Positions 18,024 to 37,891 of a DNA stretch of 40,991 nt are shown here, piece by piece. Each line of letters begins with the position of its first letter. Position 1 is the stretch's first letter. Source of the stretch: an uncultured Candidatus Bathyarchaeia archaeon (GTDB taxonomy: Archaea > Thermoproteota > Bathyarchaeia > Bathyarchaeales > WAQA01); the NCBI GenBank assembly GCA_964490655.1, contig CAZBDB010000001.1, forward strand, positions 1 through 40,991. The letters run 5' to 3'. Under the pieces are notes generated by a model, which ran no database searches, was not told the DNA's origin, and saw only the letters and a program-made list of their open reading frames with translations. The position numbers and the translations under genes were made by a program.

Positions 18024-19631
18024 TCAGACTGGAATAGACGCTATTCTCTCGTCGAAATAGTATTTTTGCGTTTCGCTGTCGTAGCCGAGGGCGACTACTC
18101 TAACTGTAAGGCTATCTAACCCCTCAGGATAATCGAGGGGAAGTGTGGACAATCTCAGTTCTCCAGCAATGTAGGCCTTTTCTGTTGTGAAGTAGGCGTA
18201 TCCTGTGTCCTTATCTCCTTGGCCGGTCAGCCCTGTCCATACAGAGTGTATGACAGCCATAGCTGCATCCCAAGCTACGTCGTTTACTAAGTCGTCCCAT
18301 GAGGGATAACGGGCGCGAACATCCTCCATCCATCTCACAGGAGCGCTCTCGACAACGCCAGTATACCAGACTCCGCCTGTACCATTCACAACGGGAAGAT
18401 ACGTAACCGTAGACCAACTCCACTCCTTCAGGGTCTCTTCGAACATACCGTAAAAGTAGGTGTTCGTCAGCAATGCTGGTCCCTGTCTCTCCCCCTTTAT
18501 ACGTACAGACCGATCCACGTACTCAGTTCTCAGTCCAAGGGTCTTTCCAGCTCTTGTCGGGCCTAAAGGCGTGTTGATGTAGCCGCCTTCAATAGCGTCG
18601 TATCCTAGGAGCCACCAATCTCCACGTCCTGCCCATACGTTGACCCTCCAAGCTTCCTCGCCTGGAATGTTCATTGATGAACCATTCGTTGGTTCACCAT
18701 AGTAGTATCCTAGATATTCGCCTATCCAAATGAGAACGCCGCCGCCATGCTTGAGCCATCTAGAAGTCAGGCTTTGCTGGTCTTCCTCGCCGTACCACAC
18801 TGGTGGACTTCCGTATTTCGGTAGGACATCAGCTCCCATTATTACTATGGCTGGCTGCATCTCAACCATAACATTCCACAGTCCGAAACGGTCTATCATC
18901 TCAACCTCTATTCCAGCTGAGGACAGTATTTCAGAGACCTTCTCGTAGTAGTCCATTATCTCAGGTTCGTTTCCTATCGCAGAGTTGTTGAAGATTGGGT
19001 CGTAGTAGAATTTCACAGGTCTGTATCCTGACCATGTTGGTGTGAAATGGGTGAATTGCATAACTCTGACCCAGTCCAATCCGTTAGCCTCTACGTCCAA
19101 GCTAGCGGATAAAGAGCCATCATCTTCTTTTGACGCTGCTAGAGAGCCTAGACTCAGAAGGCTTCCCTGCTTTAATGTTGAAGGAGCCTCCACGACGATT
19201 TGTTCAACTCTTACACTAGGGATTAGCGCGGCTTCGGGTGCTGAAGCTGAAACCCTCAAGTTGTACTCTTCCCCTAAGCTCCAGGCATTTTCGATTCTGA
19301 CTAGGGCGGTCTCTTTCGCGTTCAGCGTGATCTGTTCTCTAGGCTGCATTGGACCCCCATCCATAGATACGCCCGCGGATTGTCCTGGGAAAACCTTATC
19401 GTCGCCCACATAGATCTCATTCACCTCTAACGGTTCATCGCCTACGTTATCGATGAAGAAGAGAGCATAACGTTGTTCCTCCTGAGCTGCTAGAACGGCG
19501 TTGATCTTGAAATCCACTGCTTTGCCTAACAGGTACGGAGTCAGAAATTCGGCAGCTACAACCGCTACGATCACCACTACAACCGCAACTGCCGCAATCT
19601 TGCGCTTATCCATAAGGCTTGCTTCCCCCAC
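18024..19631 (-). CDS. Family A surface protein with an N-terminal signal-anchor (paralogue of 1..1344)
   Basis: 535-aa ORF from the GTG at 19631. By comparison with the paralogue (MDKRKIA...), the ATG at 19613 is the more likely start. It has a single N-terminal TM helix (IAAVAVVVVIVAVVAA). The central stretch PAIVIMGADVLPKYG...SLTSRWLKHGGGVLIWIGEYLG resembles the GATase1/ThuA-like pattern seen in the middle domains of both GH42 genes (weak, by eye). Confidence 0.85.
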   Translation of the reverse strand: MGEASLMDKRKIAAVAVVVVIVAVVAAEFLTPYLLGKAVDFKINAVLAAQEEQRYALFFIDNVGDEPLEVNEIYVGDDKVFPGQSAGVSMDGGPMQPREQITLNAKETALVRIENAWSLGEEYNLRVSASAPEAALIPSVRVEQIVVEAPSTLKQGSLLSLGSLAASKEDDGSLSASLDVEANGLDWVRVMQFTHFTPTWSGYRPVKFYYDPIFNNSAIGNEPEIMDYYEKVSEILSSAGIEVEMIDRFGLWNVMVEMQPAIVIMGADVLPKYGSPPVWYGEEDQQSLTSRWLKHGGGVLIWIGEYLGYYYGEPTNGSSMNIPGEEAWRVNVWAGRGDWWLLGYDAIEGGYINTPLGPTRAGKTLGLRTEYVDRSVRIKGERQGPALLTNTYFYGMFEETLKEWSWSTVTYLPVVNGTGGVWYTGVVESAPVRWMEDVRARYPSWDDLVNDVAWDAAMAVIHSVWTGLTGQGDKDTGYAYFTTEKAYIAGELRLSTLPLDYPEGLDSLTVRVVALGYDSETQKYYFDERIASIPV

Positions 19632-23693: not shown

Positions 23694-23707
23694 TATTTAA
23701 GATTTTG
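23694..23707 (-). promoter_or_regulatory. BRE/TATA-like box with shared core (plus-strand TAAGATTT, sense AAATCTTA) for the 848-aa GH gene
   Basis: Sense CAAAATCTTAAATA; the core lies 37 nt upstream of the ATG at 23661. Confidence 0.45.
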
Positions 23708-23787: not shown

Positions 23788-24372
23788 TTGAAGGCGAATA
23801 GCCAAAGGTATCAGGATAAGAGAAATAGTTTGGGATTGATTGCTGTTGCGTTGGCTTTGATCAGCGTGGCTCTTCCTTGGTACGAACTCAGCGGTGAACT
23901 AGAAGGAGGTGTAGCTTACTGGTTGGTCTATCCCCTAACACAAAACTACAACTCGCTTGTGGAAAGTGTGGTTTTCCCAGAAAACTGGAGAAACTCGGCC
24001 CCGCCGATGCCGAGAGTAGCTGTACCTCTTCTGCTATCTGCGATCATATGTGCTTATAGCTCCCTTGTTGTCAAGTCGTGGACGAAGAGAGCTCTTGGCT
24101 TGACGATCTCAACGTTCATCATGCTCGTGGCCATAGGGGATTTTGTTCAAGGTTGGCTCTTCGCTGTCATGTTGAGCGGATTACCGACTCCTCCTGGAGA
24201 GCTAAACTTTCAAGATTACGTCGTAGCTGCGAAGTGGGGTCCCGGGATTCTCTTGGCTGGAGTTACCCTTGTCTTGATGGGTTTAGGCGTTGGGTTGGAG
24301 CTCTTGAAGACGTTTGTTTTGATGGGTAAGGAAGCGGCTGAAGCTATTAAGAAGATGCATTCTCTCGACTGA
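23788..24372 (+). CDS. Small polytopic membrane protein (about 4-5 TM), unknown function
   Basis: 194-aa ORF with a TTG start. Hydrophobic helices include LGLIAVALALISVALPW, VAVPLLLSAIICAYSSLVV, LGLTISTFIMLVAIGDFVQGWLFAVML and GILLAGVTLVLMGLGVGL. It is transcribed divergently from the 848-aa GH gene. The start codon is uncertain. Confidence 0.55.
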   Translation: MKANSQRYQDKRNSLGLIAVALALISVALPWYELSGELEGGVAYWLVYPLTQNYNSLVESVVFPENWRNSAPPMPRVAVPLLLSAIICAYSSLVVKSWTKRALGLTISTFIMLVAIGDFVQGWLFAVMLSGLPTPPGELNFQDYVVAAKWGPGILLAGVTLVLMGLGVGLELLKTFVLMGKEAAEAIKKMHSLD

Positions 24373-24418: not shown

Positions 24419-26416
24419 CTAGAACGGGAAGAAGAATCTATAGATTCCGAGTGCGCCGCTAAGGAATAGTGCTAGGTTCCATCCTACTGCGAAGCCGACT
24501 GCGAGGGGTATGCCCTTCTTTTGGAATAGGGATACTCCTCCTATTCTGAGCGTTAACTTCTTCAGTACATAGGCGATAGTCCAGCTGGTCAGAATGAAGG
24601 TGCTTGTGCCTGCGACGCCCATCCAGACTCCTATAGGTTCTAATGGGAACCAGTACCATAGCGTTCTGCAAACGTATACGGCGGCTATGACTAATGCTCC
24701 TCCTACGGCACTTGCGACCCAAGCTGGATCGCTCGACGGATAGTTCTGCATAGATATTGGGTTTCCTAAGAAGCCCATCCACCAGCCTTCGTGAGTCAGT
24801 GGTCTCTGAAGTTGTGCGCCGAACATGTGTCGCACCTGCAATGCAACCGGGAAGGATACAACTATAGCGATTACCATCGCGACGGTTGTAGCAAGCATAA
24901 TGTCCCGGTAACTTGTTTTCGTAGCTTTAGCCAACCTGTATAGGAGGAGTTGCTGGCTATTGTTGTTCCAGTTCATTACGTTCTGAGGTCTGCTAATCAT
25001 CACGTAATCATTTACAACACCTGCTGGCATAGTTTCCTCTGTAAGGCCAGTGTATGCAAAGTTGATGTAGCCTGGACAGTGAGGCCAGTCACCAATGCCG
25101 GGACCACCATAACCGGCACTCCTAGAGTTGGCACCTCTTTGTACGAAGTTTACTACGATCACCATGACGGCGCCGAAGACTGTAGTTTGAGCTAAGCCGA
25201 TGTTGGAGGCCAGCAACAAGATCATAGTTACGAAGAATATTATGTAGCTCCACCTGAACGGGAGGGGCTCCTCTGCATCAACTCTTGCATCAGGACTCTT
25301 AGCCCACCCCAAGGTCTTAGCCATGTAACGCCAGTTCATAACTAGCCACATCATTATGACCGCTACAGGCATGCCGTAGGCTCCCATTGCATAGAAGTAA
25401 AACGGCGGCGACTGCCCGATTAGATCCCTCTTAGCATTGAACCATGTTATGGTGAACACTGTCTGATAATATCCCATGTAGTAGGCTATCTGAGGCAGTA
25501 TAATCATGAATATGACGTTTGATATCACACCAGATAGTAGCACATCTACAGGTACCAGATAGGCAAGGGCTATCGCTGAAGGATTGAACTGTAGCCCGTC
25601 TAACCCTACCAGCGTATCTTTGAGCGGAGTTCTAGTTGTATCTATTGTTGCAAGTGCCCAAGGTATGTATGGATCTCTGCTGAAGCCGTATATATCTGGG
25701 AACCATGCGAAAACGTTTCTCAGAGCTTGTGGCAGGAAGAAGAGGAAGCCGATGATCCCGGTTACTAGGAATAGCCTCCTTTCAGTTCTCCTCTTGCCCG
25801 CTGCACCCAGGTTCTGAACCATCTCCATTGATGGGTAGGCCCCTGGGAACGGCAGAGCCTCTACGTCAAGCCATTGACGTCGGAAGATGTTGACCATGCT
25901 CGTCATGAAGAGCCACCACAGGATTGCTAGGAGTATCCAACCTCCCATGGCTGTTGAATACTCGCCCCAAGGAACGGGGACTCCACCGGTTAGTTGTACC
26001 TGTTGAACTTCTAGAGATGGCCCCCACAGCGGAGAGAAGGCCCACATGAATGTTGGGGCCCACAGCTTTGAAGTTAGCATGTTGTCTATGGTGCTCATTG
26101 GCATCCATCCGTAGGAGAAGGCGACGGTGATTGTGAAGACAGCCCAGAGAACGGTCAAGCGTTGAGCGTTGATAGCCTTGAGGCTTGGCAGCACCTCAGC
26201 CAATAGCAGGAATATGGCGAACATTATCATGCCTATGTTGGCCGGTGTGAAAGTGTTTCCCCACTGCATCCACTGCGGAGTGAAGGCAGTTATGGTTATG
26301 CTGAAAGCCGACAGTAGAACTGCAGTTACGACTATCACAGCCCACATAGCAGGCGTCAGCACAGAAGGCGCTACTTCTACAGTGGTTTCCTCTGAGGGTA
26401 TTTCTGTTTCAGACAT
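24419..26416 (-). CDS. 665-aa polytopic membrane protein, distant OPT-superfamily-like putative transporter
   Basis: The ORF is hydrophobic throughout (more than 12 predicted TM by eye). The motif NIFRRQWLDVEALPFPGAYP resembles the OPT/YSL signature as I recall it (..L.FPSGTATA..). It has a glycine-rich terminal helix pair (GIPLAVGFAVGWNLALFLSGALGI). It has the same length as, and a topology similar by eye to, 29863..31860. Its own TATA-like boxes and an oligo-T terminator flank it. Confidence 0.55.
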   Translation of the reverse strand: MSETEIPSEETTVEVAPSVLTPAMWAVIVVTAVLLSAFSITITAFTPQWMQWGNTFTPANIGMIMFAIFLLLAEVLPSLKAINAQRLTVLWAVFTITVAFSYGWMPMSTIDNMLTSKLWAPTFMWAFSPLWGPSLEVQQVQLTGGVPVPWGEYSTAMGGWILLAILWWLFMTSMVNIFRRQWLDVEALPFPGAYPSMEMVQNLGAAGKRRTERRLFLVTGIIGFLFFLPQALRNVFAWFPDIYGFSRDPYIPWALATIDTTRTPLKDTLVGLDGLQFNPSAIALAYLVPVDVLLSGVISNVIFMIILPQIAYYMGYYQTVFTITWFNAKRDLIGQSPPFYFYAMGAYGMPVAVIMMWLVMNWRYMAKTLGWAKSPDARVDAEEPLPFRWSYIIFFVTMILLLASNIGLAQTTVFGAVMVIVVNFVQRGANSRSAGYGGPGIGDWPHCPGYINFAYTGLTEETMPAGVVNDYVMISRPQNVMNWNNNSQQLLLYRLAKATKTSYRDIMLATTVAMVIAIVVSFPVALQVRHMFGAQLQRPLTHEGWWMGFLGNPISMQNYPSSDPAWVASAVGGALVIAAVYVCRTLWYWFPLEPIGVWMGVAGTSTFILTSWTIAYVLKKLTLRIGGVSLFQKKGIPLAVGFAVGWNLALFLSGALGIYRFFFPF

Positions 26417-26431
26417 CTTTTCTCCACGATA

Positions 26432-26464
26432 GCTATTTAAGCTGCTAATCTTTATAAGATTTTC
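26432..26464 (-). promoter_or_regulatory. Two adjacent TATA-like boxes for the distal 665-aa membrane protein gene
   Basis: Sense GAAAATCTTATAAA (shared AAATCTTA core, about 39 nt upstream of the ATG at 26416) and GCTTAAATAGC (about 20 nt upstream). Together with the 394-nt gap, this suggests the gene can be transcribed independently of the upstream three-gene operon. Confidence 0.4.
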
Positions 26465-26810
26465 CTTAAATGCCCGAAATACATATCAATCACACGCGCT
26501 CTTGAGGCACGCGCTTGAAAGAAGCCGTAGTTAGCGCGCACACTCATAGAGCGTGGGCCAAGGTGATGCGAAGTTTCCTTCATACCTCTCAGAGAGCTCC
26601 TTCTTTGACCTCGACGCTGGGATTTCTCAAAGACAGAGAGATAGAAGGGGGTATCGAATTTGACAGTAGAAATCGTTCACAAATTGATGGTTCAAGAGAG
26701 ACCGTAACTCCCATCTAGCTCACGCCAAAGCGGAAGAGAGGAGCTCTTGGCCGAGACTCTACGTAGTGGAGCAGAATAGACGGCGAACTCCCAAGATGGC
26801 GAGAAGCTGC

Positions 26811-29800
26811 TTACAACGCTCCTCTTCTGAAGGATTGCATAATCTTATCTTTTCTTTTGACCCAGTCTAGTGACTTGTTGTAGATTATCTTCATGACTCT
26901 CTCTCTTATGAGCTCTGGCATTCCTTCCTGTTCGACAGTTGATGAAATATATACACGGTAGAAGTCATCCTTAGGTTTCTGCTCAATAATGAGTGTGTTC
27001 GATGTGGAGAACCATTGTTGTCTGTGATGGAAGATGTACCTGAATTGTATAGAGATGATGTTGGAGCCGTCAGGCATCTGCATCTCCTCTGGTTTCTTAA
27101 CGTCTTCCACCCTTTCGGTAAAACCTCCAGCTAATTCCTTCATCTGATCATAAAGGAAACTGCTTAGAATCAAGGCTTCATTAGTTTGGACCCTTATGGG
27201 CATAGATACTCTTCTCTCACCGAAACCTTTGTATATCTCTTCATATCTCAAGCGTTCCTCTTCTGGGGAACGCTTTATTCTTCTCAATACTGAAGGCGCT
27301 GCCAGTCTTGCAGCCTTCAAAGCTGGGGGGATTGCGGAGATTGTAGTTATGAGCATGCCTACAAGAACCCCTACAATGCTCATCCACCATTGCAGATTCT
27401 CTCTTACACCGACGCTTATGAACTCTGAGATAATCTTCATCAACCTGAAAACGGTCAATCCGGTAAGGTATCCCAACCCTCCACCCATAAGCCCCATGGT
27501 AGCAGACTCAGCTATGAACACAAGAGCTATATGCAACGGGTTGAACCCAACAGTCGTATAAACGAATATCTCTCTGCGTCTCCTCTCCACAGCGCCATAC
27601 ATTACCGCGGTTATAGACATCATCACTATAGCCAAAGGCAAAAGGATATCATAGTATCTTATCTCTATTCTCGTACCCAAGAAGTAGCGGAGCATTTGAC
27701 CGGCTGAGCTGACCCATACATCGAAACCTCTAGCCCAAGCCTGTATCTGAACGAACTTGGTTATTCCGTCTGTATCGCTTGGATCTTTGAATTCAACGAT
27801 CATTCTGGAGATTGATATAGGCATGTTATAAGGTTTAGAGGCTAACTTCAAAGCTTTATCAAAGCTCATGAGGATCACCTGAGAAGCGTTGCATGGCACT
27901 ATATCCTCACCTATCAAGGTTGTCGGCGCGTAGAAATCTCCGTTAAGATCGCTTTTCGTGTCAAATTCACCATCGTCAAAGAAGCCGGCTACTCTTATAG
28001 GTAATTCGAATGAAAGGCCTCCAGATGAAATGCCTAAAGAGATATTAGAGCCTACAGGTAACCCTAGTTTCTGGGCAGCATTCAGAGAAACCATAAGTGA
28101 TTCATCATCTTGGATGTAGCTTCCCTCAGCAACATTTACGTTAACATACTTTCTCTCTATGTCAGGCAACACCCCTATAATTCCTAACATCACCACAGTC
28201 CTTCCATCTTTCTTGAGCTCTATTGAGTATTGACCCGGCAAACTGGGTGGCAGAGTCTCCGCTTTGGGTGTTACGAGCTGGATATCTGGTTCCTGTTCAA
28301 TAGAGAACAGAGTTACGGGGTCAATAGGTATGAACGTGTTTGTCTTTTCACCTGGATTTTTCATTAGGGCCCATTCGCCGGCGGAGGGGCCTACAACCTC
28401 TGACTCTAGACCAAAAATGGATGTGACTGATGTCAAGGTTGTGACCGCAGAGATCAAAGCGCACAAGGAGATTATAACCAAAGACGACCTTAATCTTCTG
28501 AGCTTAACGTATCTCTTTCCGAGCATAAAGGTCACAGCCAAAACAGACCTAAAACCAATCTCCACCGGGTTTCCAGCCTCGAAAACTATCCTCGGTAGGA
28601 CAAAGATCACTAGTAAGCTTACAATTACGGAGCCCAGAATAGCCGCGAAGAACAAGTCCGAGTAGAGAGAGAGGATGAGAGCCACTCCAGGGTAGAGGAA
28701 GTAGAAAGACGCTATCACGATCGCGAATATAACCATGAAGGACAGGAAGCGGAATTTGATTTGCTCCTTTTCGAAGAAAAAGAATGCTAGGGCGATGGAA
28801 AATATCGCTAGGAAGAATGGTAACATTTGGGCGCCTTCTGCAGCCGTGTTTCTCATCTCTTTTAGCTCGTTGATTATGAACCCGGTAGCGAAAATGTAGG
28901 CCCTTCTTAAGGGCATCTGAACCCCTTCATCCGAAAAGTCTCCTCTCTCTATGGAGGAGCTTGCAAACTCGATTTGAGCGTCGACCTCATTCAGAGCTGT
29001 GTCCTTCAAAGCTGCGAGGAAGAAGCCTAGCCTCTCAGCCTCGCGTATGTTTGCCCACATGAACTCAGATGCCTTTTGAATCGCCGATAACGACCATCTA
29101 TAAGCGAATGGCGTGATATCTACAGACAAGAGAGAACCTTCTGGGAGGTTGAAAGACTCACTCCCGTTTTGGACTACAAACACTTGATCCGCAGCACCAG
29201 GTTGAGACGCAATCAGCCCAATCTCTACGTGTTTGTTCGCTGGTATTATGACTACGATCCAAGGGCGAGAGAAGAGAAAAGGACTCATCCACCTAGAGTT
29301 CACAAATATCGATGTGATGTTGTCACCATAGAAAGGAGTATAGTCTCCCACTCCGGGATCAACAGCGGAAGTCAAAATGTAACCTGAAGCTGGATCTAGA
29401 ACCTGGGCTTTAAGGGATAACGCGTATCTACCAGAGAAGACATTCCACGATTCCCCTGTCAGGTTTAGCATGGCTCCTGGCACGAGCCTAAGATCCGGGA
29501 TGGATGTGACTTCTCCAATGAGGGGAAGGAATTCCTTCTCAAAAGTTGATGGCGCTAGAACTCTGGACCCATTTGCTAGGTAGGCGTAGATTCTGTACGA
29601 GTGGGGATGCCCACCTCTCACTTCCGCTTCGTAGCGTCCAGTGGAGTCTGTCTTTAGTGGTGGAAAGGCCCTCTGGAAGTACCAGTCTATTACTACCACG
29701 GTTGCATTTGGGACGGGATTTCCGTCGAGATCAGTTACTCTGCCCTTTAGGATGGCTGTCTCTTCACCAACTTGAGCATCGGTTCGACAGGTTCCTATTA

Positions 29801-29846
29801 GAAGGCTTAGTAAGAAGCATAAGGCGACTACTGTAGAGAGCTTCAT
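26811..29846 (-). CDS. FtsX/MacB-type permease fusion: signal peptide, CarboxypepD_reg-like ectodomain, 4 extra TM, MacB-like TM1-loop-TM2-4 core, and a novel C-terminal cytoplasmic domain of about 165 aa
   Basis: 1011-aa ORF. The N-terminus is MKLSTVVALCFLLSLLIGT..ILKGRVTDLDGNPVPNATVVV..TDSTGRYEAEV. The cytoplasmic basic stretch GKRYVKLRRLRSSLVIISLCALISAV is followed by a loop of about 250 aa. The canonical FtsX block is AVERRRREIFVYTTVGFNPLHIALVFIAESATMGLMGGGLGYLTG...AIPPALKAARLAAPSVL. It starts 16 nt after the upstream gene, with a GGTGA SD-like element. Confidence 0.75.
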   Translation of the reverse strand: MKLSTVVALCFLLSLLIGTCRTDAQVGEETAILKGRVTDLDGNPVPNATVVVIDWYFQRAFPPLKTDSTGRYEAEVRGGHPHSYRIYAYLANGSRVLAPSTFEKEFLPLIGEVTSIPDLRLVPGAMLNLTGESWNVFSGRYALSLKAQVLDPASGYILTSAVDPGVGDYTPFYGDNITSIFVNSRWMSPFLFSRPWIVVIIPANKHVEIGLIASQPGAADQVFVVQNGSESFNLPEGSLLSVDITPFAYRWSLSAIQKASEFMWANIREAERLGFFLAALKDTALNEVDAQIEFASSSIERGDFSDEGVQMPLRRAYIFATGFIINELKEMRNTAAEGAQMLPFFLAIFSIALAFFFFEKEQIKFRFLSFMVIFAIVIASFYFLYPGVALILSLYSDLFFAAILGSVIVSLLVIFVLPRIVFEAGNPVEIGFRSVLAVTFMLGKRYVKLRRLRSSLVIISLCALISAVTTLTSVTSIFGLESEVVGPSAGEWALMKNPGEKTNTFIPIDPVTLFSIEQEPDIQLVTPKAETLPPSLPGQYSIELKKDGRTVVMLGIIGVLPDIERKYVNVNVAEGSYIQDDESLMVSLNAAQKLGLPVGSNISLGISSGGLSFELPIRVAGFFDDGEFDTKSDLNGDFYAPTTLIGEDIVPCNASQVILMSFDKALKLASKPYNMPISISRMIVEFKDPSDTDGITKFVQIQAWARGFDVWVSSAGQMLRYFLGTRIEIRYYDILLPLAIVMMSITAVMYGAVERRRREIFVYTTVGFNPLHIALVFIAESATMGLMGGGLGYLTGLTVFRLMKIISEFISVGVRENLQWWMSIVGVLVGMLITTISAIPPALKAARLAAPSVLRRIKRSPEEERLRYEEIYKGFGERRVSMPIRVQTNEALILSSFLYDQMKELAGGFTERVEDVKKPEEMQMPDGSNIISIQFRYIFHHRQQWFSTSNTLIIEQKPKDDFYRVYISSTVEQEGMPELIRERVMKIIYNKSLDWVKRKDKIMQSFRRGAL

Positions 29847-29862
29847 CAGGTGCTCACCGGAT

Positions 29863-31860
29863 TTAGTAAGGTAGCAACCACATGGACTTCTTGACGAGGA
29901 ATAGGGCTGATCCGAGGGTGCCCATGAAACCGTCCCCTAATAGGACTCCGACGACTATCAGGGTCCGGTATCTGTCCCAGACCTCCTTGGTAAGTATTTG
30001 AGCCACTACCCTGTTACCGATAAGAGAACCGATCAGCACTGCCAGAGACCAACTGAATGTAGGTCCACCAGCAATCGCACTCATTGGATGCCACCATAGA
30101 CTTCCGACAAGGAAGGAGATTAGGAACCAGGGTGCATGGAAGACAAGGTCGCTTACCGCATAGACTATGGAACCCACGATGACTGAGCCGATGATCCAGT
30201 TGTCCCTAAAGAGGTATCCGCTCCATACCCATTTTTGGGTTCGAGCGAAGTTGGCAGCATCCACAGCCCAACCGGTTATGGTAAACGGGTACGCTCCCGA
30301 TGGAAACGGATGAATTGACCAGAAGAGATTCACAAACAAGAAACTGCTTGAGAGCCCAAGAACTGCAACAAGTATGAATGCTTTCAAATAGTCACTATGC
30401 CTAGCTTCAACAATATCAGCCTGCTTCAGGGCCTGGGCAATCCCTGAACCTCCCCCAAACGTCTGTATGGGGGCAAACCAAACGGCTGGATTTCCTATGC
30501 CAGAATAGTATATGAGAAGCTCCTTCTGATATATTGTTGATAGGCTTCCGAAAGTTACACCCGAGGAAGCTGTGCCTATGAAAGATGCGAAGAAGGACCA
30601 CACGATCGTGTAGAATGCAAGCAGCCACACAAAATAAAGAAGATCCGGCACAAGAATCAGATTCAAAACAACAGAAGCTGAAGAACAAGCAATGAAAATA
30701 CCCAACAGAACCAGCGGATTTACCAGCCCGCCGCCGGTTTCACTAACTTCTCCCAGTCTCTTTAGAGTGCTGACCAATCGGCTGAGGGTTCTGGGATGAA
30801 GAAGGAACGGTGTTACAGCTACAGCTATCGATAAACCTATCTGAACACTGTTGAAGAAATACAAAACCGATCTGTCCACAAGCAAGTCTATCCCCCAAGT
30901 CTTTATCGTTTCAGGTTCTGTTTCAGGCGGCCATAGACCTAAGTTTGTGATGACACTGGTACCCACAAAGTAGTAAGTCAGAGAGCCGATGAATTGAGCA
31001 GCAGATATGCCTATGGGCAGAAGGAATCCCGTTATATAAGGAATTGGATTGAGAGTGAAAGCAAATGCAGCACCGGGAAGAACGCCAGACAGTGTGGTTG
31101 TGACGTCTATAACGGATGGAACCGTTAGTTGCATGGCGCCCCCTATAATGTTATTTATCAGATTAGGTATGAAACTCAACCCAGTGTTTATGAGGGCTCC
31201 CATCAAGGCTGAAAGCATCAAAACCCTGATCGTTGATGGCTCCCTCTCAGCGAGAGTCAATACGGTTCTAGCCTCTGCTGTAGCAGCTGGGAACTCCAAA
31301 TTCTCCACTCTTACGTACAAAGCGTAACAGAAGTAGCCCATAGATATGTTAGCTGCTACAGAGAACACCGTCTGGAGAACAATCAAGAGTTGGGGCATCG
31401 CAAACGCAGGATCTAAGAGAACCCAACTAGTCAGATAGAATCGATATACCATGTCAGGTGGTGGAGCCCACCAATCCGGTGTTACTTGAGCTACGCCTAA
31501 GGCCCACGCATAATCAGTGGTTCGAATGTACATGTTTCTTATGGGAAGAAGAAATTGCACTGGCAACGCTCCCCACCATCCGATCAAACCTCCTAACGAA
31601 GCAGATATACCGCCAAAAGCTGTTATGATAAATATCTCTTGCTTAGATAGCGGAGCCCCTAAGACCCTTGCGAACTCAGCCCATAGCAGGATGACGATCC
31701 AGGCTTGAAAAGGAAGCCATTGGCCGCTTATCAGGAAAAGGTACATTATAGCAGGCTGGATGACAAAGGAACTGAAGACCATGGCCAGAACTGTTCTCCA
31801 GGTTAGGCCTTTTCCAGGAATGACAGCTTTTTCATCCGTCTTGGTTGAAACCTCTTCCAC
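29863..31860 (-). CDS. 665-aa polytopic membrane protein, distant OPT-superfamily-like putative transporter (second copy)
   Basis: GTG start preceded by AGGTGA, 13 nt after the stop of the 1559-aa gene. The motifs VRVENLEFPAATAEARTVL and C-terminal VVGVLLGDGFMGTLGSALFLV resemble the OPT signatures (..FPSGTATA.. and ..GLIAGE.LMGV..) as I recall them. It is only distantly related to 24419..26416 but has identical length. Confidence 0.55.
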   Translation of the reverse strand: MEEVSTKTDEKAVIPGKGLTWRTVLAMVFSSFVIQPAIMYLFLISGQWLPFQAWIVILLWAEFARVLGAPLSKQEIFIITAFGGISASLGGLIGWWGALPVQFLLPIRNMYIRTTDYAWALGVAQVTPDWWAPPPDMVYRFYLTSWVLLDPAFAMPQLLIVLQTVFSVAANISMGYFCYALYVRVENLEFPAATAEARTVLTLAEREPSTIRVLMLSALMGALINTGLSFIPNLINNIIGGAMQLTVPSVIDVTTTLSGVLPGAAFAFTLNPIPYITGFLLPIGISAAQFIGSLTYYFVGTSVITNLGLWPPETEPETIKTWGIDLLVDRSVLYFFNSVQIGLSIAVAVTPFLLHPRTLSRLVSTLKRLGEVSETGGGLVNPLVLLGIFIACSSASVVLNLILVPDLLYFVWLLAFYTIVWSFFASFIGTASSGVTFGSLSTIYQKELLIYYSGIGNPAVWFAPIQTFGGGSGIAQALKQADIVEARHSDYLKAFILVAVLGLSSSFLFVNLFWSIHPFPSGAYPFTITGWAVDAANFARTQKWVWSGYLFRDNWIIGSVIVGSIVYAVSDLVFHAPWFLISFLVGSLWWHPMSAIAGGPTFSWSLAVLIGSLIGNRVVAQILTKEVWDRYRTLIVVGVLLGDGFMGTLGSALFLVKKSMWLLPY

Positions 31861-31873
31861 TGGTCTTCACCTA

Positions 31874-34800
31874 TCACGTTCGTCCTGATTGCTGTCTGGA
31901 CGTGCTTGCTAGACTTTCAGCAGCTCTCTTCTGATAGAAGTCCTTCTGGCTGGGGGGAAGAACCCTCCATATTAGAAACTGCTTGCGGAGAGCGTTTATG
32001 AATACCTTATTTGAGGTCTTCCAGTTCTTCAAGACGCCGCTTGTTCTCAAGAAGTGGAGGGTTAGGTTATATCTGCCCTCTTGCGCAACGGCTTCCAAGT
32101 CCACGTTCTCCATGAGAGCTAAGTCGTATGGGGCCAGCCTTACCACGGCTGACAAACGCTTGATTGTTCTCAGACCTTCAATGTATTCGTCATAGCTCAG
32201 TCTCTCTGTTGAGAACAGACCAGTCTTCTCATACCCGCTATATGTGTCGAAGTACTCCCTCAAGAAGCCGAATATTCCAAGAAGTTCCTCCTCTGTAGTG
32301 ACTATGAAGGGCATCGGCACCGTCCAATGATCTCCTACAGGTTCTGGTATCTTCCATTTGCGTTCAAGGCTGGGTGTGACCAAGCGCCAAGCCTTTAGGG
32401 CCGGGTAAACTGTGGCCAGCACGGGTATAGCTATGGCTAATCCTACGATAACCAAGATAAAGGAAGATGCAAAGTTGGGGAAAAAGTCTGGCGGATACGC
32501 TCCCAGTCTAATAAGGATTGAAGTCGCTGAAACCCCAAGAACATAGCCTAAAACGCTACTTAATACGCCGTATACGAGAGATTCTGCTAGGAACATCCCA
32601 GCGATCTGTGTGGGCGTAGATCCCACCACTACGTAGACAGATATCGATCTGATCCTTTCGTAGATGGCCCCGACGGTTATATTCAATATTGAAACGGCAG
32701 CTATTATCAGAGGAACCATGAGGTTCTCAGCGCCCAAGAACGAGAACCATGATCTGGCGGTGACCTCCACTACATCCCCTATTGGCCAGCCTTCGATGCT
32801 CTTTCCTTTGATGAGTCCGTAGATGATAAGGGTGTTCAGTCTATATGCCAACTTTAGTGCCAACGGCTCTATATCAGAATCGTTCAAAGGTTTAATAGCG
32901 ATACTCACGGGTTGGGCCCCCACGGAGAAGATCTTCCACAGTAGCTCAAAAGGTACTATGACAACATAGGATCCTTGAAGGTGAGGTGGAACGGCTTGTG
33001 CGCCTCCGGGCGCCATCACTGGATCTCTCGGAGTTATGGGCTCGCCGTCAAGATCTATTAGTCCACTCTCGGGGCTGAAACCAAATCCGCTGTAAAGGGA
33101 GGCCCCGTCAAACAAACCAACAACTGTTAGGTTGAGGCCATAAAAGGCTATCTGAGCGCCCGGTCCAATTGGACGACCCAGCTCTCTCGTTAAGTTGGTT
33201 GCTAATTCTCTGCTTACGATGATTGAGAAAGTCTCATCTGGATAGAACCATCTGCCTCTGACTTTTATACGATCCCAGATTCCTGAGATCTCCTGCTCTT
33301 CTGGGCCTAAAGCAAGCACCGAGTAGATCCTTGCAGTCAAGTTTTGGACATTCCAGTAAATAAAGCCCCTTGTACTAGGACCAGCCGGTGGGAAGAACCA
33401 CACTCTTGGAGCAACGTAGGCAGATTCACCTAACTCTGCCTTGAGCTGAAGCCACAGTTCGGTAGGAATATTGGCCCAAGGCTTCTGCCTTATTAGAAGT
33501 CCGCTGTATGGAACGGGCGTGTCGGTGGTGGACAAGGTTCTCGGGACAGCTATCGTTGCCAAGGATGTAAAAGTCATAAGGGAGAATGTTATGATCGTAA
33601 TTGAAGCCAAGGTCAGTGCTGATCGGAAAGGCCTCTTTTTCATCCACTGAATACCCGTCCCAAATGCTGCTGAGATAACAGCTCCAGCAGTAGAGGCTAA
33701 TGAGTGGATCCCGAGAATCTTTGAGCTCATCGCTTTGGCGCTTGAGGAAGCTTCGGATATTAGGAAACCTATTATCGGGATTATAACGACTATCATGCCG
33801 AAACCTGTTAGAACCATCAATAGGTTGTGGGCCAGATGAAAACCAGGGTGGAAGAGGTACAGGAACAGCACAAGAAGAATCGATATCAACATAACAGCCA
33901 ATACGCGTTTCAAGCCGAAGTAACTGAATGTCAACCTTTCAAAGACATAAGCAAAAGGTAGGACCAACAGGAAGAAGAAAGATGTCGTGAATATCGCGTT
34001 TTGAATGAGTCCTATGGTCTCAACGTACGCTCTTTGTTCGTACCCCCAAGCCGCGAACGAATCTCCATATGCAGAGGAGTATTGAAGATCGTCTAATGCG
34101 TTTGAGGAACTTTCCATGTATCCCTCTGCCAAGCCGTGATAGAGCACTATCATAGGGTTAGATACGCTGAACCGCTCGGCTGTGGAGACTCGCGCATCGT
34201 TCAAAAGGAACAGTTGGTTGGCATACTCAAATGATGGATGCTTGATAACTACTGTTTCACCTTTTCTAGCTACTATGTAGCCAGATGGTCTTTCGTATTC
34301 ATGAGTCGAGTTTAACAGAGCACCCCACACATAACTGGTAGCTCCTGCTCCACCCACGACTTGAAGCTGACCTGGACTCGGCGCACCGGCCCCGGCGAAA
34401 TATATCACAATCTCGGCAGGTATTCCCGGTTCTATGAAGAACATACGGTCTCCAAAGATGGGAGATCCTGTCCATTGACCCCAGCGAATCATGGGACCGT
34501 GTGAGAGGAAGTTGTATACAACTGGGTTTAGGGAGGAACTTAAGTCCCTTGGGTTCAGCATGTTCATTAATACTATGCTGCCACACTCAAAGATGGGGAC
34601 AAGCTTGGTCATGTAGGAGCTTGTGATCAATGCCGTAATCGTCGGGACACCTTGCAATCGCATGGCTCCAAAGGACCCTAGATCCGTCGCCCAATATATG
34701 TTACCTTCGGTGGAATCGACAGCAAAGGCGTTAACAACCGAAGGAGCATCTTGGCCCGTATACGGCTTTATCCCTTTAATTGTCACAGTTCCATGCTCAT

Positions 34801-36553
34801 CAGGCTTAGCAATCACCTCGAGTATCCCGGCAAGCTGAGCGGTAGCTACTGATCCCTGAGCTTCTTGGGGTGTTGCCATCTGGACGTTTCCAGCAAACCC
34901 GGTAGTACCGCCGACGTAATAGACTATGAGGTCGTCCCATACCTCAGGGTCACTTTCCTTTGTAACTGGGTTGAAAAAGTTAGTCGTAAGGTTGTACGTA
35001 GTAACCGTTATGTTGAGCGTCGCATATCCCCATTCGGTATGGAATCGTGAAGCCCCACTTGCAGATAGAGGTAGAGTAGGTTCGTTCAGTAATCCGTAGG
35101 CCACTGCTGCGATAAAGTATGCTTGGGACCAGACGTTGCTGAATATGACTCTGTCATACGTGTCCAGAGGGGTCATCTGGTAAGTCCGGTAATCGTTGAC
35201 TGTGTTTATGCTGAATCCGCCGCCAAAAGCCGCTAAAGTGAAAGGTTCCGAGTCGAACATGACCCAAGCGAACCTCATGGGCGGAGAAGACTGTATGAAG
35301 GGCGGATGGATTTGAAGAATGCCGTCTACGAAGGATCTACCGTAATCTTGTCCAAAAACAGCTCTCAAACGTGGCAAATATCTATTGAATATTGTAAAAA
35401 CGAGAGGAGCATACTTGGCGTTCAGACTTTCCATAAGTTTGTAGCCGTAAGTGAAACCCTTATTCATTACAGCCAGCTGATCTGTACCGTAGCTTAAGTC
35501 CAAGTCTATGAAGAGCTTGATCTTAACACCCACTTCGCTGAAGTGTTTATCCACGTATTCCTTAGCACCCCATATGTTTTGGAAGTGACCGGATGTTAGC
35601 AAGATGATGACCGATCGTTTGGGTGTGTTTTCAACTAGAAATCTGGACAGTTCTAGAAGTACAGAAGGCCCGATGGATTCTGTTGCTCCGGGAGAAGTAC
35701 TCGGGAAGATGCTAAACGAGTCGTAATAGGCACACAAGGCTATGTATTCGTTCCTCAGATCTGGATCTGAGCCTTCTATCAACCCAACGATGTTGGGCAC
35801 AAGCACCCTCTCCCATGTCATCTTGGATCTTATCCAGATGCGGGCTTCTCCATTATTTTCATCTAAGTAATCAATCATCTTCGATGAATCTCTTTGGCTC
35901 AGAAGATATCTTGGGAACTTAATGGGTTGGTAGTAAATCTTAGAGAAGGCCTCCCCCCTCAGCGTCTCCGTGCCCATGTTATATATAACGCCTTTGGCCC
36001 CGAACATTATAGCGAAACGGAAGAACCACTTTGAGTTGAAGTCCATGATCACAAATTTTCCAGAAACATCTTTGCCGTCGAAATCGTCCATTTCCCCCCT
36101 ACCGACGTAGATTACCCTATCTCCTTCAGCGGGACTTGTGTAGCTGTTAGTATTGACGAAGTTAGGCCAGCACATAGAACTGTTCAAAACCCTACCGTCT
36201 GCAAGAGTTATATTCGCTCCCCAGTCCATCGGAACCGTGACATAGTAGTTTTCATAAAAGCCTTCATCTCCGTAAGGCTGGACTCCAATCCCTTCGAGGT
36301 AATTCGCGATGTAGTCGGCAGCTTCAAAGAAGCCTGGGTAACCGGACACTCTAGAGCCGAGGCCGCTTAGATATTTCACGTGATCCTGTATTCTATCGTT
36401 CCCGTCCCCCTCTCTGAAGAAAGAAGATACGTCATCAAAAGAGATCTGTTCCACTTGTGGTTGAGCAGAAACAGGTATCGACAAGAATTGAACGCTCACC
36501 AGAAGAACTATCAGAGTCAGCAGAAATGAACATCCTGTGCGATCGCCAGACAT
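31874..36553 (-). CDS. Giant FtsX/MacB-type permease fusion: signal peptide, PA domain plus M28-like (transferrin-receptor/GCPII-like) ectodomain with degenerate metal ligands, further ectodomain, 4 extra TM, MacB-like core, and a novel C-terminal cytoplasmic domain
   Basis: 1559-aa ORF. The PA-like segment is GDRVIYVGRGEMDDFDGKDVSGKFVIMDF...GAKGVIY. The M28-like segment is NIVGLIEGSD...YIALCAYYDSF..SPGATESIGPSVLLELSRFL...VIILLTSGHFQNIWGAKEYV...FIDLDLSYG...MFDSEPF. The FtsX block is YERIRSISVYVVVGSTPTQIAGMFLAESLVYGVLSSVLGYVLG...VYPALKAWRLVTPSLE. A TATA box lies about 34 nt upstream. Confidence 0.75.
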   Translation of the reverse strand: MSGDRTGCSFLLTLIVLLVSVQFLSIPVSAQPQVEQISFDDVSSFFREGDGNDRIQDHVKYLSGLGSRVSGYPGFFEAADYIANYLEGIGVQPYGDEGFYENYYVTVPMDWGANITLADGRVLNSSMCWPNFVNTNSYTSPAEGDRVIYVGRGEMDDFDGKDVSGKFVIMDFNSKWFFRFAIMFGAKGVIYNMGTETLRGEAFSKIYYQPIKFPRYLLSQRDSSKMIDYLDENNGEARIWIRSKMTWERVLVPNIVGLIEGSDPDLRNEYIALCAYYDSFSIFPSTSPGATESIGPSVLLELSRFLVENTPKRSVIILLTSGHFQNIWGAKEYVDKHFSEVGVKIKLFIDLDLSYGTDQLAVMNKGFTYGYKLMESLNAKYAPLVFTIFNRYLPRLRAVFGQDYGRSFVDGILQIHPPFIQSSPPMRFAWVMFDSEPFTLAAFGGGFSINTVNDYRTYQMTPLDTYDRVIFSNVWSQAYFIAAVAYGLLNEPTLPLSASGASRFHTEWGYATLNITVTTYNLTTNFFNPVTKESDPEVWDDLIVYYVGGTTGFAGNVQMATPQEAQGSVATAQLAGILEVIAKPDEHGTVTIKGIKPYTGQDAPSVVNAFAVDSTEGNIYWATDLGSFGAMRLQGVPTITALITSSYMTKLVPIFECGSIVLMNMLNPRDLSSSLNPVVYNFLSHGPMIRWGQWTGSPIFGDRMFFIEPGIPAEIVIYFAGAGAPSPGQLQVVGGAGATSYVWGALLNSTHEYERPSGYIVARKGETVVIKHPSFEYANQLFLLNDARVSTAERFSVSNPMIVLYHGLAEGYMESSSNALDDLQYSSAYGDSFAAWGYEQRAYVETIGLIQNAIFTTSFFFLLVLPFAYVFERLTFSYFGLKRVLAVMLISILLVLFLYLFHPGFHLAHNLLMVLTGFGMIVVIIPIIGFLISEASSSAKAMSSKILGIHSLASTAGAVISAAFGTGIQWMKKRPFRSALTLASITIITFSLMTFTSLATIAVPRTLSTTDTPVPYSGLLIRQKPWANIPTELWLQLKAELGESAYVAPRVWFFPPAGPSTRGFIYWNVQNLTARIYSVLALGPEEQEISGIWDRIKVRGRWFYPDETFSIIVSRELATNLTRELGRPIGPGAQIAFYGLNLTVVGLFDGASLYSGFGFSPESGLIDLDGEPITPRDPVMAPGGAQAVPPHLQGSYVVIVPFELLWKIFSVGAQPVSIAIKPLNDSDIEPLALKLAYRLNTLIIYGLIKGKSIEGWPIGDVVEVTARSWFSFLGAENLMVPLIIAAVSILNITVGAIYERIRSISVYVVVGSTPTQIAGMFLAESLVYGVLSSVLGYVLGVSATSILIRLGAYPPDFFPNFASSFILVIVGLAIAIPVLATVYPALKAWRLVTPSLERKWKIPEPVGDHWTVPMPFIVTTEEELLGIFGFLREYFDTYSGYEKTGLFSTERLSYDEYIEGLRTIKRLSAVVRLAPYDLALMENVDLEAVAQEGRYNLTLHFLRTSGVLKNWKTSNKVFINALRKQFLIWRVLPPSQKDFYQKRAAESLASTSRQQSGRT

Positions 36554-36580
36554 TATCTCTCATTACATGGTTGAAAGAAT

Positions 36581-36598
36581 GTTATATAAGATTTTTGT
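36581..36598 (-). promoter_or_regulatory. BRE/TATA box for the operon of the 1559-aa, 665-aa and 1011-aa genes
   Basis: Sense ACAAAAATCTTATATAAC; the core lies about 34 nt upstream of the ATG at 36553. It is preceded by a T7 terminator for the upstream gene. Confidence 0.5.
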
Positions 36599-36610
36599 AA
36601 CCTTCTCTGC

Positions 36611-36640
36611 CCTCCGATCTCCCAAAAAAAGGAGGTGTTG
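36611..36640 (-). terminator. T7 tract with flanking CCTCC/GGAGG complementarity after family C gene 36668..37858
   Basis: Sense CAACACCTCCTTTTTTTGGGAGATCGGAGG, about 30-55 nt downstream of the stop and immediately followed by the TATA box of the next unit. Confidence 0.5.
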
Positions 36641-36667
36641 TTGGAGATCTGGGATGCACCCAGCTTT

Positions 36668-37858
36668 CTATTTTCTTCTTCGGATTAGCACCAGAATGAT
36701 GAATATAACAGCTACTACTGCGACAGGTGCCAGCATTGATACGTCGTGCATTATCAGCGCCATCTGCTCAGCATTCTCAGCTTGGCTCAGCAGGCCAAGA
36801 GCTTGACTTAGATCTTCCTGCGCGCCGGCCACATCTCCTGCTACTACCTTGTCATAGGCTGATGTCGCTGTAGTTAATGCTTGAGAGGCCAGATCCTTGG
36901 CTCCTGTATCCTTGTACGATTCCATTGCATGCGATGCACCGCCCTCAGCCTTCCCGAGATCGACGAGTAGATTTATCATCTCCAGATTGTCTTCGTAGCC
37001 TCCTGGACCGTGAATGTACAAGGCAACTTTGGCGACTTGCTCCTGACCCTCTGTCATAGCACCTTCGCCCCAGCCGGTATGTCTGAATTGAGAGCTGAAC
37101 TCTACGCCACCCCACTCCCTCTCGTCTCCTAGACTATAGGATACATACAAGGGAGGAGCTAGGTTGACTACGGTGATTCCTTCGGCGGGCTTACTGAAAT
37201 CCATCCAGTAGGTCGTCGCAGTATTGTCGAAGAGAGAGTCGACGCCCGCTGCGTGTTCAGCTGGGAGATCTACCTCTTGCAGACCTATCCCCTCGACTGA
37301 AAGGTAGGCTTTGCTGCCGCCAAAGACGTTCTCTGGGAATCCCCAAAGTCCCCATGCAATCTGTGTCACTGCAAGTGCATCTTCGTCTGCTGTCAATGTT
37401 GAGGATATCAGGATGACACCGGTCTTGCTTACCGTTATGTCCGTCACCATTGACAACGGATGAACATTATACTTGCTGAAAAACTTCAGAGACACGTAAT
37501 CAGCCGTCTCTTGTATTTCAGGCTCGTCTGTTGCATTGCTTCCCCCAGTTTGGCCCCAGTCGTCCGACCAGATAAACCATCCCGCCTGATAGGCATAAGT
37601 CATCTGTGCTATCCTTATGTCGCTGACTCCCCCATTCTTCTGAATGGTAACTCCAAACTCCTCCACGCCCGTTGCACTCAGCCAAGCAACATTGACTTCA
37701 TCCGCCCCAACATCGACCAAGAACTCGCCAGCTTGCTGCTGAATGTAAGAGAGCTCTGTGACGCCCTGTACGCTGGCAGAAGAGACAACTAGACAAAGCA
37801 GAGCTGCTACTGTAACCAATCCAAAGGTATCAGAACGCACTTCCAAATATCCCCCCAA
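36668..37858 (-). CDS. Family C surface protein (third paralogue), immediately upstream of the FtsX/OPT-like cluster
   Basis: 396-aa ORF with a TTG start at 37858 (alternative in-frame GTG 18 nt downstream). It carries the family C motifs SSTLTADEDALAVTQIAWGLWGFPENVFGGSKAYLSVEG, YWMDFSKPAEGITVVNLAP and VALYIHGPGGY, and the C-terminus APVAVVAVIFIILVLIRRRK. About 65% identity by eye to 10421..11596 in the core. Confidence 0.85.
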   Translation of the reverse strand: MGGYLEVRSDTFGLVTVAALLCLVVSSASVQGVTELSYIQQQAGEFLVDVGADEVNVAWLSATGVEEFGVTIQKNGGVSDIRIAQMTYAYQAGWFIWSDDWGQTGGSNATDEPEIQETADYVSLKFFSKYNVHPLSMVTDITVSKTGVILISSTLTADEDALAVTQIAWGLWGFPENVFGGSKAYLSVEGIGLQEVDLPAEHAAGVDSLFDNTATTYWMDFSKPAEGITVVNLAPPLYVSYSLGDEREWGGVEFSSQFRHTGWGEGAMTEGQEQVAKVALYIHGPGGYEDNLEMINLLVDLGKAEGGASHAMESYKDTGAKDLASQALTTATSAYDKVVAGDVAGAQEDLSQALGLLSQAENAEQMALIMHDVSMLAPVAVVAVIFIILVLIRRRK

Positions 37859-37876: not shown

Positions 37877-37891
37877 GAATATATAAGATTT
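37877..37891 (-). promoter_or_regulatory. BRE/TATA box for family C gene 36668..37858
   Basis: Sense AAATCTTATATATTC; the core lies 26 nt upstream of the TTG at 37858, consistent with a leaderless mRNA. Confidence 0.45.

Follow-up and report, generated by a model that had tools for sequence, protein, structure and literature searches.

ABC (ATP-binding cassette) systems of type VII, such as MacB, LolCDE, and FtsEX, are built around permeases whose known partners are adaptors, hydrolase activators, and chaperones; transporters of the secondary-carrier type are not among them. In MacB, a basic segment preceding the first transmembrane (TM) helix and a coupling motif between TM2 and TM3 constitute the elements that contact the nucleotide-binding domain (NBD) (PMC5985334). 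Barley HvYS1, an importer of the OPT superfamily, is a dimeric proton symporter for which an elevator-type mechanism has been proposed (PMC9691689). Proteins predicted to adopt these two folds are encoded side by side in a stretch of 40,991 nucleotides from an uncultured Candidatus Bathyarchaeia archaeon (GenBank assembly GCA_964490655.1, contig CAZBDB010000001.1, positions 1–40,991), hereafter referred to as the window. Its minus strand carries genes for two FtsX-type fusion proteins, F1 (1559 aa, 31874–36553) and F2 (1011 aa, 26811–29846), and for two OPT-like proteins, D2 (665 aa, 29863–31860) and D1 (665 aa, 24419–26416), in the order F1-D2-F2-D1. A preliminary description of this DNA, which gave gene order, strand, and lengths correctly, regarded the genes as an ATPase-less module. 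Sequence comparisons show the locus to be the archaeal version of a membrane system that is widespread and has no name.

The pairing of an F-type fusion with an OPT-like D protein is real, and its conservation runs deep. When one genome per species was scanned with an 11-sequence alignment, 76 loci with F1-type genes were recovered. Neighbourhoods were surveyed for 33 archaeal loci from Bathyarchaeia, Brockarchaeota, Thermofilaceae, and Nitrososphaerota, viewed with flanks of 10 kb on either side, and for 37 bacterial loci from Desulfobacterota (including Halodesulfovibrio aestuarii DSM 17919), Armatimonadota, Zipacnadia, and one Planctomycetia metagenome-assembled genome (MAG). Called open reading frames (ORFs) were compared with hidden Markov models (HMMs) of D1, D2, and F and with Escherichia coli LolD. 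Of 63 informative loci, 62 have a D-family gene directly 3′ of the fusion gene (29/30 in archaea, 33/33 in bacteria); the median gap is 3 nt for the archaeal loci and −4 nt for the bacterial ones. Related genomes thus keep the association seen in the preliminary description, and the pairing is broader than that description could show. Both D types are present in 27/33 archaeal and 23/37 bacterial loci, and an F2-type gene in 11/33 and 0/37, respectively. Around D2 homologs, the intact F1-D2-F2-D1 cassette recurs at 58–60% identity amid wholly different flanks, and F1 and D2 still stand together at an identity as low as 32%; the place of D1 relative to F differs among archaeal loci. A neighbour-joining tree places the bacterial fusion sequences in one clade apart from the archaeal ones. 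In all, 87 homologs of F1 were found; homologs are annotated as belonging to Bathyarchaeia or Thermoproteota MAGs, which marks the window as archaeal. The membrane core of F1 alone retrieves 1,093 representative clusters at E ≤ 1e-30 from a library clustered at 50% identity, mostly of proteins of 1,450–1,550 aa. Several Bathyarchaeia MAGs carry two diverged F1-D2(-D1) modules on separate scaffolds (loci L014 and L075, L030 and L033, L019 and L036, L028 and L077).

An old duplication of a two-gene F–D unit, as originally proposed, is not supported by these data. D1-type and D2-type genes each score solely on their own HMM in both domains of life, which argues that D1 and D2 are ancient paralogs, orthologous across domains, rather than products of a recent duplication of the unit. 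The single bacterial fusion gene is accompanied by both D types, and F2 occupies the place that a minimal FtsX protein holds in bacteria. The identical length of D1 and D2 and their low mutual identity had been correctly noted; since the relatives inspected differ in their size ranges (about 627–667 aa for the D2 type and about 657–685 aa for the D1 type), the match at 665 aa is a coincidence.

F1 is composed of a signal/anchor segment, a PA-containing M28-like ectodomain (aa 42–480; 35114–36430) that aligns to the active aminopeptidases 2ek8 and 6hc6, three extra TM helices followed by an amphipathic juxtamembrane helix (aa 847–973; 33635–34015), an FtsX/MacB module (aa 975–1392; 32378–33631), and an alpha/beta cytoplasmic C-terminal domain (aa 1395–1559; 31877–32371), all encoded on the minus strand. 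F2, a paralog of F1, has an N-terminus that Pfam assigns to CarboxypepD_reg/Ig-like domains; three extra TM helices and an FtsX module follow, and its C-terminal domain is homologous to that of F1. Pfam FtsX (PF02687; gathering cut-off 25.5) is matched by F1 with 52.7 bits and by F2, at residues 738–848, with 39.6 bits; the two proteins match each other across the membrane core (BLASTP E = 5e-19). An AlphaFold2 model of F1 residues 800–1559, built from 62 sequences (pLDDT 87.6, pTM 0.71), starts with a long stalk helix that runs into the first of the three extra TM helices and continues through the amphipathic helix into TM1 of the FtsX module, a beta-rich ectodomain, TM2, a short coupling helix, TM3, TM4, and the alpha/beta C-terminal domain. 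In Foldseek searches this model retrieved MacB, LolC/E, 5xu1, YbbP, HrtB, YtrF, and BceB at a probability of 1.00, and matched the MacB periplasmic domain 3ftj (TMt 0.56) as well as FtsX; the F1 family profile matches MacB at 9e-15. These profiles and this model show F1 and F2 to be type VII ABC permeases of the MacB/LolC/FtsX fold, in line with the preliminary assignment. The four extra TM helices counted there are reduced by hydropathy and the model to three plus the amphipathic juxtamembrane helix, a number that, together with an external N-terminal domain, gives a consistent topology.

Two motifs are conserved in archaeal and bacterial members of the family alike and represent candidate functional sites. 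HPGFHLA.N (F1 aa 902–910; 33824–33850) lies in the outer loop between the second and third extra TM helices, with H902 and P903 invariant, and DLDGEPITP (aa 1167–1175; 33029–33055) belongs to the FtsX ectodomain, where P1175 is invariant and D1169 almost invariant. The C-terminal domain, recognized by its modelled secondary structure (beta-alpha-beta4-alpha2) and its invariant residues W1400, P1415, P1475, G1506, W1511, R1523, and W1529, had been described as common to both fusions; comparison of the F1 and F2 domains by hhalign (95.9% probability, E = 5.9e-9) agrees with this and shows distant homology. The Foldseek search with the F1 model also gave weak local matches to PsbP, DcrB, and START-like proteins (E = 0.02–0.08), which are not assignable to any one region of it.

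D1 matches Pfam DUF6785 (74.4 bits, cut-off 25, 9e-21) followed by DUF6784 (36.9 bits, cut-off 26.4, 4.3e-9), and a bacterial D1 ortholog matches DUF6785 at 1.4e-137. D2 itself has no Pfam match, and Pfam OPT (PF03169) is matched by neither protein. Pairwise BLAST of D1 with D2 is marginal (E = 0.005), and hhalign of the two family profiles gives 99.5% probability over 542 columns, making the two proteins distant homologs over the full length. The assignment of D2 to a fold comes from its AlphaFold2 model (pLDDT 83.9, pTM 0.85), for which HvYS1 (7wst_A/7wsr_A) is the sole significant match in the PDB (E = 1.2e-8, probability 1.00, TM 0.64/0.70 over about 695 columns; next match E = 0.04). A search of PDB sequences with the D2 family profile found nothing, so that the YS1 link stems from fold comparison alone. 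Four of 35 D2-family members match Pfam OPT, among them P0024, which is matched end to end with 45.2 bits, and P0019 with 30 bits; both exceed the cut-off of 25.8. D2 is thus a predicted polytopic transporter of the OPT/YSL fold, as the preliminary description had sensed in calling the 665-aa proteins OPT-like, and D1 and D2 represent two anciently diverged transporters of the OPT/Yellow-Stripe fold. D-family genes also occur alone, as in locus L007, which suggests that a D protein is a transporter in its own right. In a Nitrososphaerota MAG, two ORFs without Pfam matches (339 and 296 aa; L087:14675–16577) come after the fusion gene and may be a split D2-type gene.

The bacterial loci show what kind of machine the fusions belong to. 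A LolD-type ATPase gene lies directly 5′ of the fusion gene, on the same strand, in 28/33 loci, and somewhere in the locus in 34/37. The encoded protein of roughly 245 aa, preceded by a minimal FtsX protein of 230–250 aa, scores 170–190 bits against E. coli LolD, 3.7e-35 against Pfam ABC_tran, and 233 bits against the LolD model; its best NCBIfam models are LolD, MacB, YbbA, DarD, DevA, and FtsE. Since the bacterial counterpart thus comprises a minimal FtsX, a LolD-type ATPase, the fusion, D1, and D2, the fusion family is a true ATP-driven type VII ABC system. The epithet ATPase-less is therefore not supported for the family; it fits the archaeal branch insofar as a LolD-type ATPase is linked to the module in 0/33 loci. 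A co-conserved cognate ATPase, named in the preliminary description as the mark of an ordinary split type VII system, is in spirit what the bacterial operons contain and what none of these archaeal loci contains. As the bacterial sequences form one separate clade, ATPase linkage follows a single archaeal/bacterial split. The cultured H. aestuarii DSM 17919 holds the full system in one operon (L058, NZ_CP192219.1 1724034–1748866), in the order glycosyltransferase (GT) family 28-like, GT4, GT4, His_Phos_1, GT28-like, deacetylase-like, minimal FtsX, methyltransferase, ABC ATPase, fusion, D1, D2, followed by FdhE, FdhD, MobA, and MoaA genes. On NZ_CP192219.1 the minimal FtsX gene spans 1731615–1732307, the ABC ATPase gene 1733195–1733935 (L058:9162–9902), the fusion gene 1733935–1738911, D1 1738908–1740884, and D2 1740888–1742843.

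For the archaeal system we prefer the following mode of action, for which the chances stand about even: the F ectodomains capture or release an extracytoplasmic substrate, D1 and D2 import it, and an ATPase acts in trans. F1 and F2 would form a LolC/LolE-like heterodimer and D1 and D2 a YS1-like dimer. Using mechanotransmission as in LolCDE, MacB, and YbbAP, the FtsX pair would capture or mechanically release the substrate, which probably contains carbohydrate, by means of the non-catalytic PA/M28-like ectodomain and the FtsX ectodomain, the permeases being energised by an unlinked, possibly shared MacB-type NBD; the OPT-fold proteins would then import the substrate on the proton gradient. The window is a glycosidase island with two glycoside hydrolase (GH) family 42 genes and GH5, GH101-like, GlcNAc-2-epimerase-family, CBM4_9, and apiosidase-like genes, and no transporters other than the F/D module were found in it. 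Because the module is the sole transporter-like gene set in this 41-kb island, the substrate in this archaeon is plausibly an oligosaccharide or glycoconjugate. GH3, GH15, and GH66 genes stand in the neighbourhoods of close relatives.

Several observations weigh against this import mechanism. The genes around the archaeal modules vary widely, with 153 Pfam families represented in 123 neighbours and no family present in more than five of these, so the glycan link is specific to this lineage; the earlier idea that the module serves the surrounding glycosidases accordingly suits this lineage but not the archaeal loci at large, nor the glycosyltransferase-rich Desulfobacterota. There, the module shares an operon with GT28-like, GT4, His_Phos_1, deacetylase-like, and methyltransferase genes, a context that points to biosynthesis or export rather than uptake. 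The direction of transport would follow only from the analogy with characterised eukaryotic OPT/YSL importers. No ATPase partner was found in the 33 archaeal loci, and the conserved residues D278, H323, D352, and D464 of the F1 ectodomain may form a non-canonical catalytic site.

The main rival to import is therefore a role in export or envelope assembly, in which D moves a cytoplasmically made glycoconjugate, lipid-linked molecule, or small glycosylated molecule outward, where extraction, processing, or installation would fall to the FtsX fusion and its ATPase, in the manner of LolCDE or FtsEX. The Desulfobacterota operon, co-directional and overlapping, with two GT28-like, two GT4, His_Phos_1, polysaccharide-deacetylase-like, and methyltransferase genes, speaks for this explanation, and GT clusters recur in 14–16 bacterial loci. 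Moreover, characterised type VII ABC systems all act outward or at the outer face (PMC5985334), and a degenerate M28-like protein has been proposed to function in surface-carbohydrate biosynthesis (PMC4000134). However, the GT set is missing from archaeal, Armatimonadota, and Planctomycetota contexts, the non-GT contexts are catabolic or mixed (GH3, GH5, GH42, GH15, GH66, GFO_IDH_MocA, AP_endonuc_2), and characterised OPT/YSL proteins are proton-coupled importers (PMC9691689). On balance, export is a serious but rather improbable explanation.

A second alternative concerns the energy source. The archaeal type VII permease clade might have lost its NBD altogether, the FtsX fusions serving as ATP-independent, passive scaffolds, receptors, or gates for the OPT-fold carriers or being driven by the proton gradient through these elevator-type proteins. 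The preliminary description had seen no Walker-A-bearing ORF of real length in the 41 kb. No ABC ATPase was indeed found in any frame: a phmmer comparison of all window ORFs of at least 70 aa with LolD gave no match, and when three type VII ATPases were searched against the window by tblastn, no match was better than E = 1.8. Walker-A-like strings do occur in three ORFs (1518–2945, 18024–19631, and 1–1344), each with an N-terminal hydrophobic signal/anchor. The minus-strand ORFs 18024–19631 (535 aa) and 1–1344 (448 aa, at the window edge) are paralogs sharing the string GPTRAGKT, and the product of 1518–2945 bears a C-terminal TM anchor in addition to its signal peptide. None of the three has a significant Pfam or LolD-type match, and 18024–19631 has no PDB match; all three were rejected as energisers, and the strings are most likely due to chance, those of the paralogous pair lying in probably extracytoplasmic proteins. 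Beyond the window, the absence of linkage extends across all four archaeal lineages surveyed, solitary archaeal F2-type genes have no adjoining ATPase either, and the sampled archaeal flanks contain no strong LolD-type match. Weak ABC matches near some Bathyarchaeia loci (80–96 bits to LolD) lie on the opposite strand and were dismissed as cognate ATPases; they represent a DrrA-type ATPase and a second ABC ATPase adjoining a Peripla_BP_2 binding-protein gene. A precedent for orphan FtsX-type permeases is the ADOP family (TIGR03434), whose genes do not adjoin ABC ATPase genes.

ATPase independence is nevertheless unlikely. The docking motifs NMRKRrFRT.LT before TM1 and YER.REI..Y..VG..P between TM2 and TM3 (in F1, YER.R.I.VY..VG..P) show conservation across 30 sequences from archaea and 36 from bacteria, as strong in archaea as in ATPase-linked bacteria, and the corresponding helices of the model are found at the expected places. 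The C-terminal domain was considered and discarded as a stand-in for the NBD, since ATPase-linked bacterial orthologs carry both. Sharing of ATPases encoded elsewhere is common among ABC systems. Because the docking motifs are kept where no ATPase is linked, the archaeal ATPase is probably supplied in trans as an unlinked, possibly shared MacB-type NBD, a solution we moderately prefer to true ATPase independence; sharing would also fit the presence of two modules and no linked ATPase in several archaeal MAGs.

The M28-like ectodomain gives rise to a third alternative, namely that F1 is an extracellular aminopeptidase that trims proteins or peptides, the products of which are taken up by the OPT-like proteins. 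F1 matches Pfam Peptidase_M28 with 39.3 bits (cut-off 21.3), and its family profile matches the active PA-M28 aminopeptidases 2ek8 (1.6e-27) and YwaD, its closest solved relatives. Oligopeptides are carried by OPT members, and Bathyarchaeia have been linked to protein degradation (PMC9123169). However, alignment to 2ek8 of 30 archaeal and 36 bacterial sequences shows that the first zinc-ligand His is replaced by Tyr or Phe in 65/66 domains and the catalytic Glu by His (His323 in F1) in 56/66, while the Glu zinc ligand has become Trp, Tyr, Phe, Gly, or Ser and the second His ligand Ser or Gly. D278, D352, and D464 are retained, and only the bridging Asp/Glu and D352 persist from the metal site. 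With three of five zinc ligands and the catalytic Glu gone, the F1 domain is very unlikely to be a canonical di-zinc peptidase, and the peptide flavour attributed to the locus in the preliminary description is weakened. The residue pattern resembles that of non-catalytic transferrin receptor and nicalin, both of which are matched by the F1 family profile (3e-12 and 1e-8), as is GCPII. As the replacement residues are themselves conserved, a binding role or non-canonical chemistry is likely, and the domain is probably a binding module. In addition, no peptidase or amino-acid catabolic context was seen, which leaves the aminopeptidase explanation with very little probability. Finally, that F and D are independent and adjacent by coincidence is hardly credible: although D-family genes can stand alone and the position of D1 varies among archaeal loci, adjacency spans two domains of life with near-zero or overlapping gaps and wholly different flanks.

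Apart from its core, the locus includes a gene for a surface protein, S396 (396 aa, 36668–37858, minus strand), upstream of F1. The intergenic gaps in S396-F1-D2-F2-D1 measure 114, 13, 16, and 394 nt. The 13-nt and 16-nt gaps, together with the GGTGA element preceding D2 and F2, indicate that F1-D2-F2 forms one operon, as had been claimed. The sequence AATCTTAWAWA has four exact copies in the window, against 0.06 expected by chance, all on the minus strand and 22–45 nt 5′ of start codons: at 37880–37890 before S396, which accordingly has its own promoter as first described, at 36583–36593 before F1, at 26451–26461 before D1, and at 23694–23704 before a gene for an 848-aa CBM4_9 protein. The copy before F1, located 30–40 nt 5′ of its start, reads AATCTTATATA as a BRE/TATA-like promoter core, and the core common to the four copies, AAAATCTTAWAWA, looks like a shared BRE/TATA promoter, hinting that the S396, F1, D1, and CBM4_9 units are co-regulated through it. 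D1 is thus predicted to be transcribed from its own promoter within the F2–D1 spacer (26417–26810, minus strand). With its 394 nt, this spacer is longer than in L001 and L002 (about 100–120 nt) but shorter than in L008 (about 1.3 kb). An Rfam scan of it matched no family, and Rfam and bacterial promoter/terminator scans added nothing further.

Hydropathy gives S396 a signal peptide, a C-terminal TM helix, and an RRRK tail. Two paralogs in the window (10421–11596 and 11752–12939) share its size of about 390 aa, signal peptide, C-terminal TM helix, and basic tail; none of the three matches Pfam. Relatives outside the window are restricted to the closest loci, L002 and L009, and one longer relative in L002 bears Pfam Mann_GBD_bact, which suggests that proteins of this type bind glycan. 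S396 is a surface-anchored, lineage-specific accessory. A second surface-anchored, beta-rich family of about 475–513 aa, likewise without Pfam match, is represented in the window by 1518–2945 and 16625–18010 and elsewhere by L005:2310–3851, L015:8437–9924, L029:6361–7827, and others; in nine archaeal loci it adjoins the module, for which it may provide an accessory or a substrate-binding component. A 194-aa polytopic ORF at 23788–24372 on the plus strand is inverted here and convergent with D1; its counterpart in L001, L002, and L009 lies just 3′ of D1 on the same strand.

Literature searches, which also covered orphan FtsX permeases, surfaced no account of DUF6785/DUF6784 or of an FtsX/M28/OPT system, in keeping with the earlier statement that no described system pairs FtsX-type proteins with OPT-like carriers. 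Among curated NCBI families, none includes the fusion or the D proteins. A partnership that spans Bacteria and Archaea, with a fusion core of more than 1,000 clusters at 50% identity, would define a new composite transporter class; it would also open a first way to the function of DUF6785/DUF6784 and of the OPT-fold proteins of prokaryotes. Whether an FtsX-type permease can work with a shared ATPase or with none finds a natural test in the archaeal branch; were this branch ATP-free, no MacB/FtsX-type machine before it would have been powered or used in the absence of ATP. With the system present in the fully sequenced H. aestuarii, it is directly testable.

Among known systems, LolCDE resembles the archaeal locus in the four-TM FtsX fold, in which an ectodomain separates TM1 from TM2 (Foldseek probability 1.00), and in encoding two different FtsX-type subunits together; LolD is also the model on which the cognate ATPase of the bacteria reaches its highest score. 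In contrast to LolCDE, F1 and F2 add three TM helices, N-terminal ectodomains of roughly 300–800 aa, and a C-terminal domain of roughly 165 aa, their partners are OPT-fold transporters rather than LolA, the archaeal loci have no ATPase gene, and family scores fall far under the LolC/E/D equivalog cut-offs. MacB, YbbAP, HrtBA, and FtsEX share the permease fold, the coupling-helix motif, and the amphipathic pre-TM1 helix with the fusions, which differ in having no MacA/TolC, EnvC, or TesA-type partner; a secondary-carrier partner is undescribed in the literature examined. Each ADOP chain contains a pair of FtsX domains, as against a single one in F1 and in F2; lineage and architecture differ, and F1 and F2 match TIGR03434 weakly (27–30 bits against a cut-off of 622.3). 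Transferrin receptor 1 and nicalin likewise exhibit a PA/M28-like fold with lost zinc ligands, but the F1 domain is fused to an FtsX permease and its residues H323, D278, D352, and D464 are conserved. HvYS1 and the OPT/YSL family (PF03169) provide a template on which the D2 model superposes over its whole length. Unlike HvYS1, to which D2 is about 15% identical, the D proteins come as two paralogs encoded together and are genetically tied to an ABC-type permease, and D1 belongs to DUF6785/DUF6784. Viewed against these systems, the family looks like a subfamily of type VII ABC systems whose partners are of a class without precedent.

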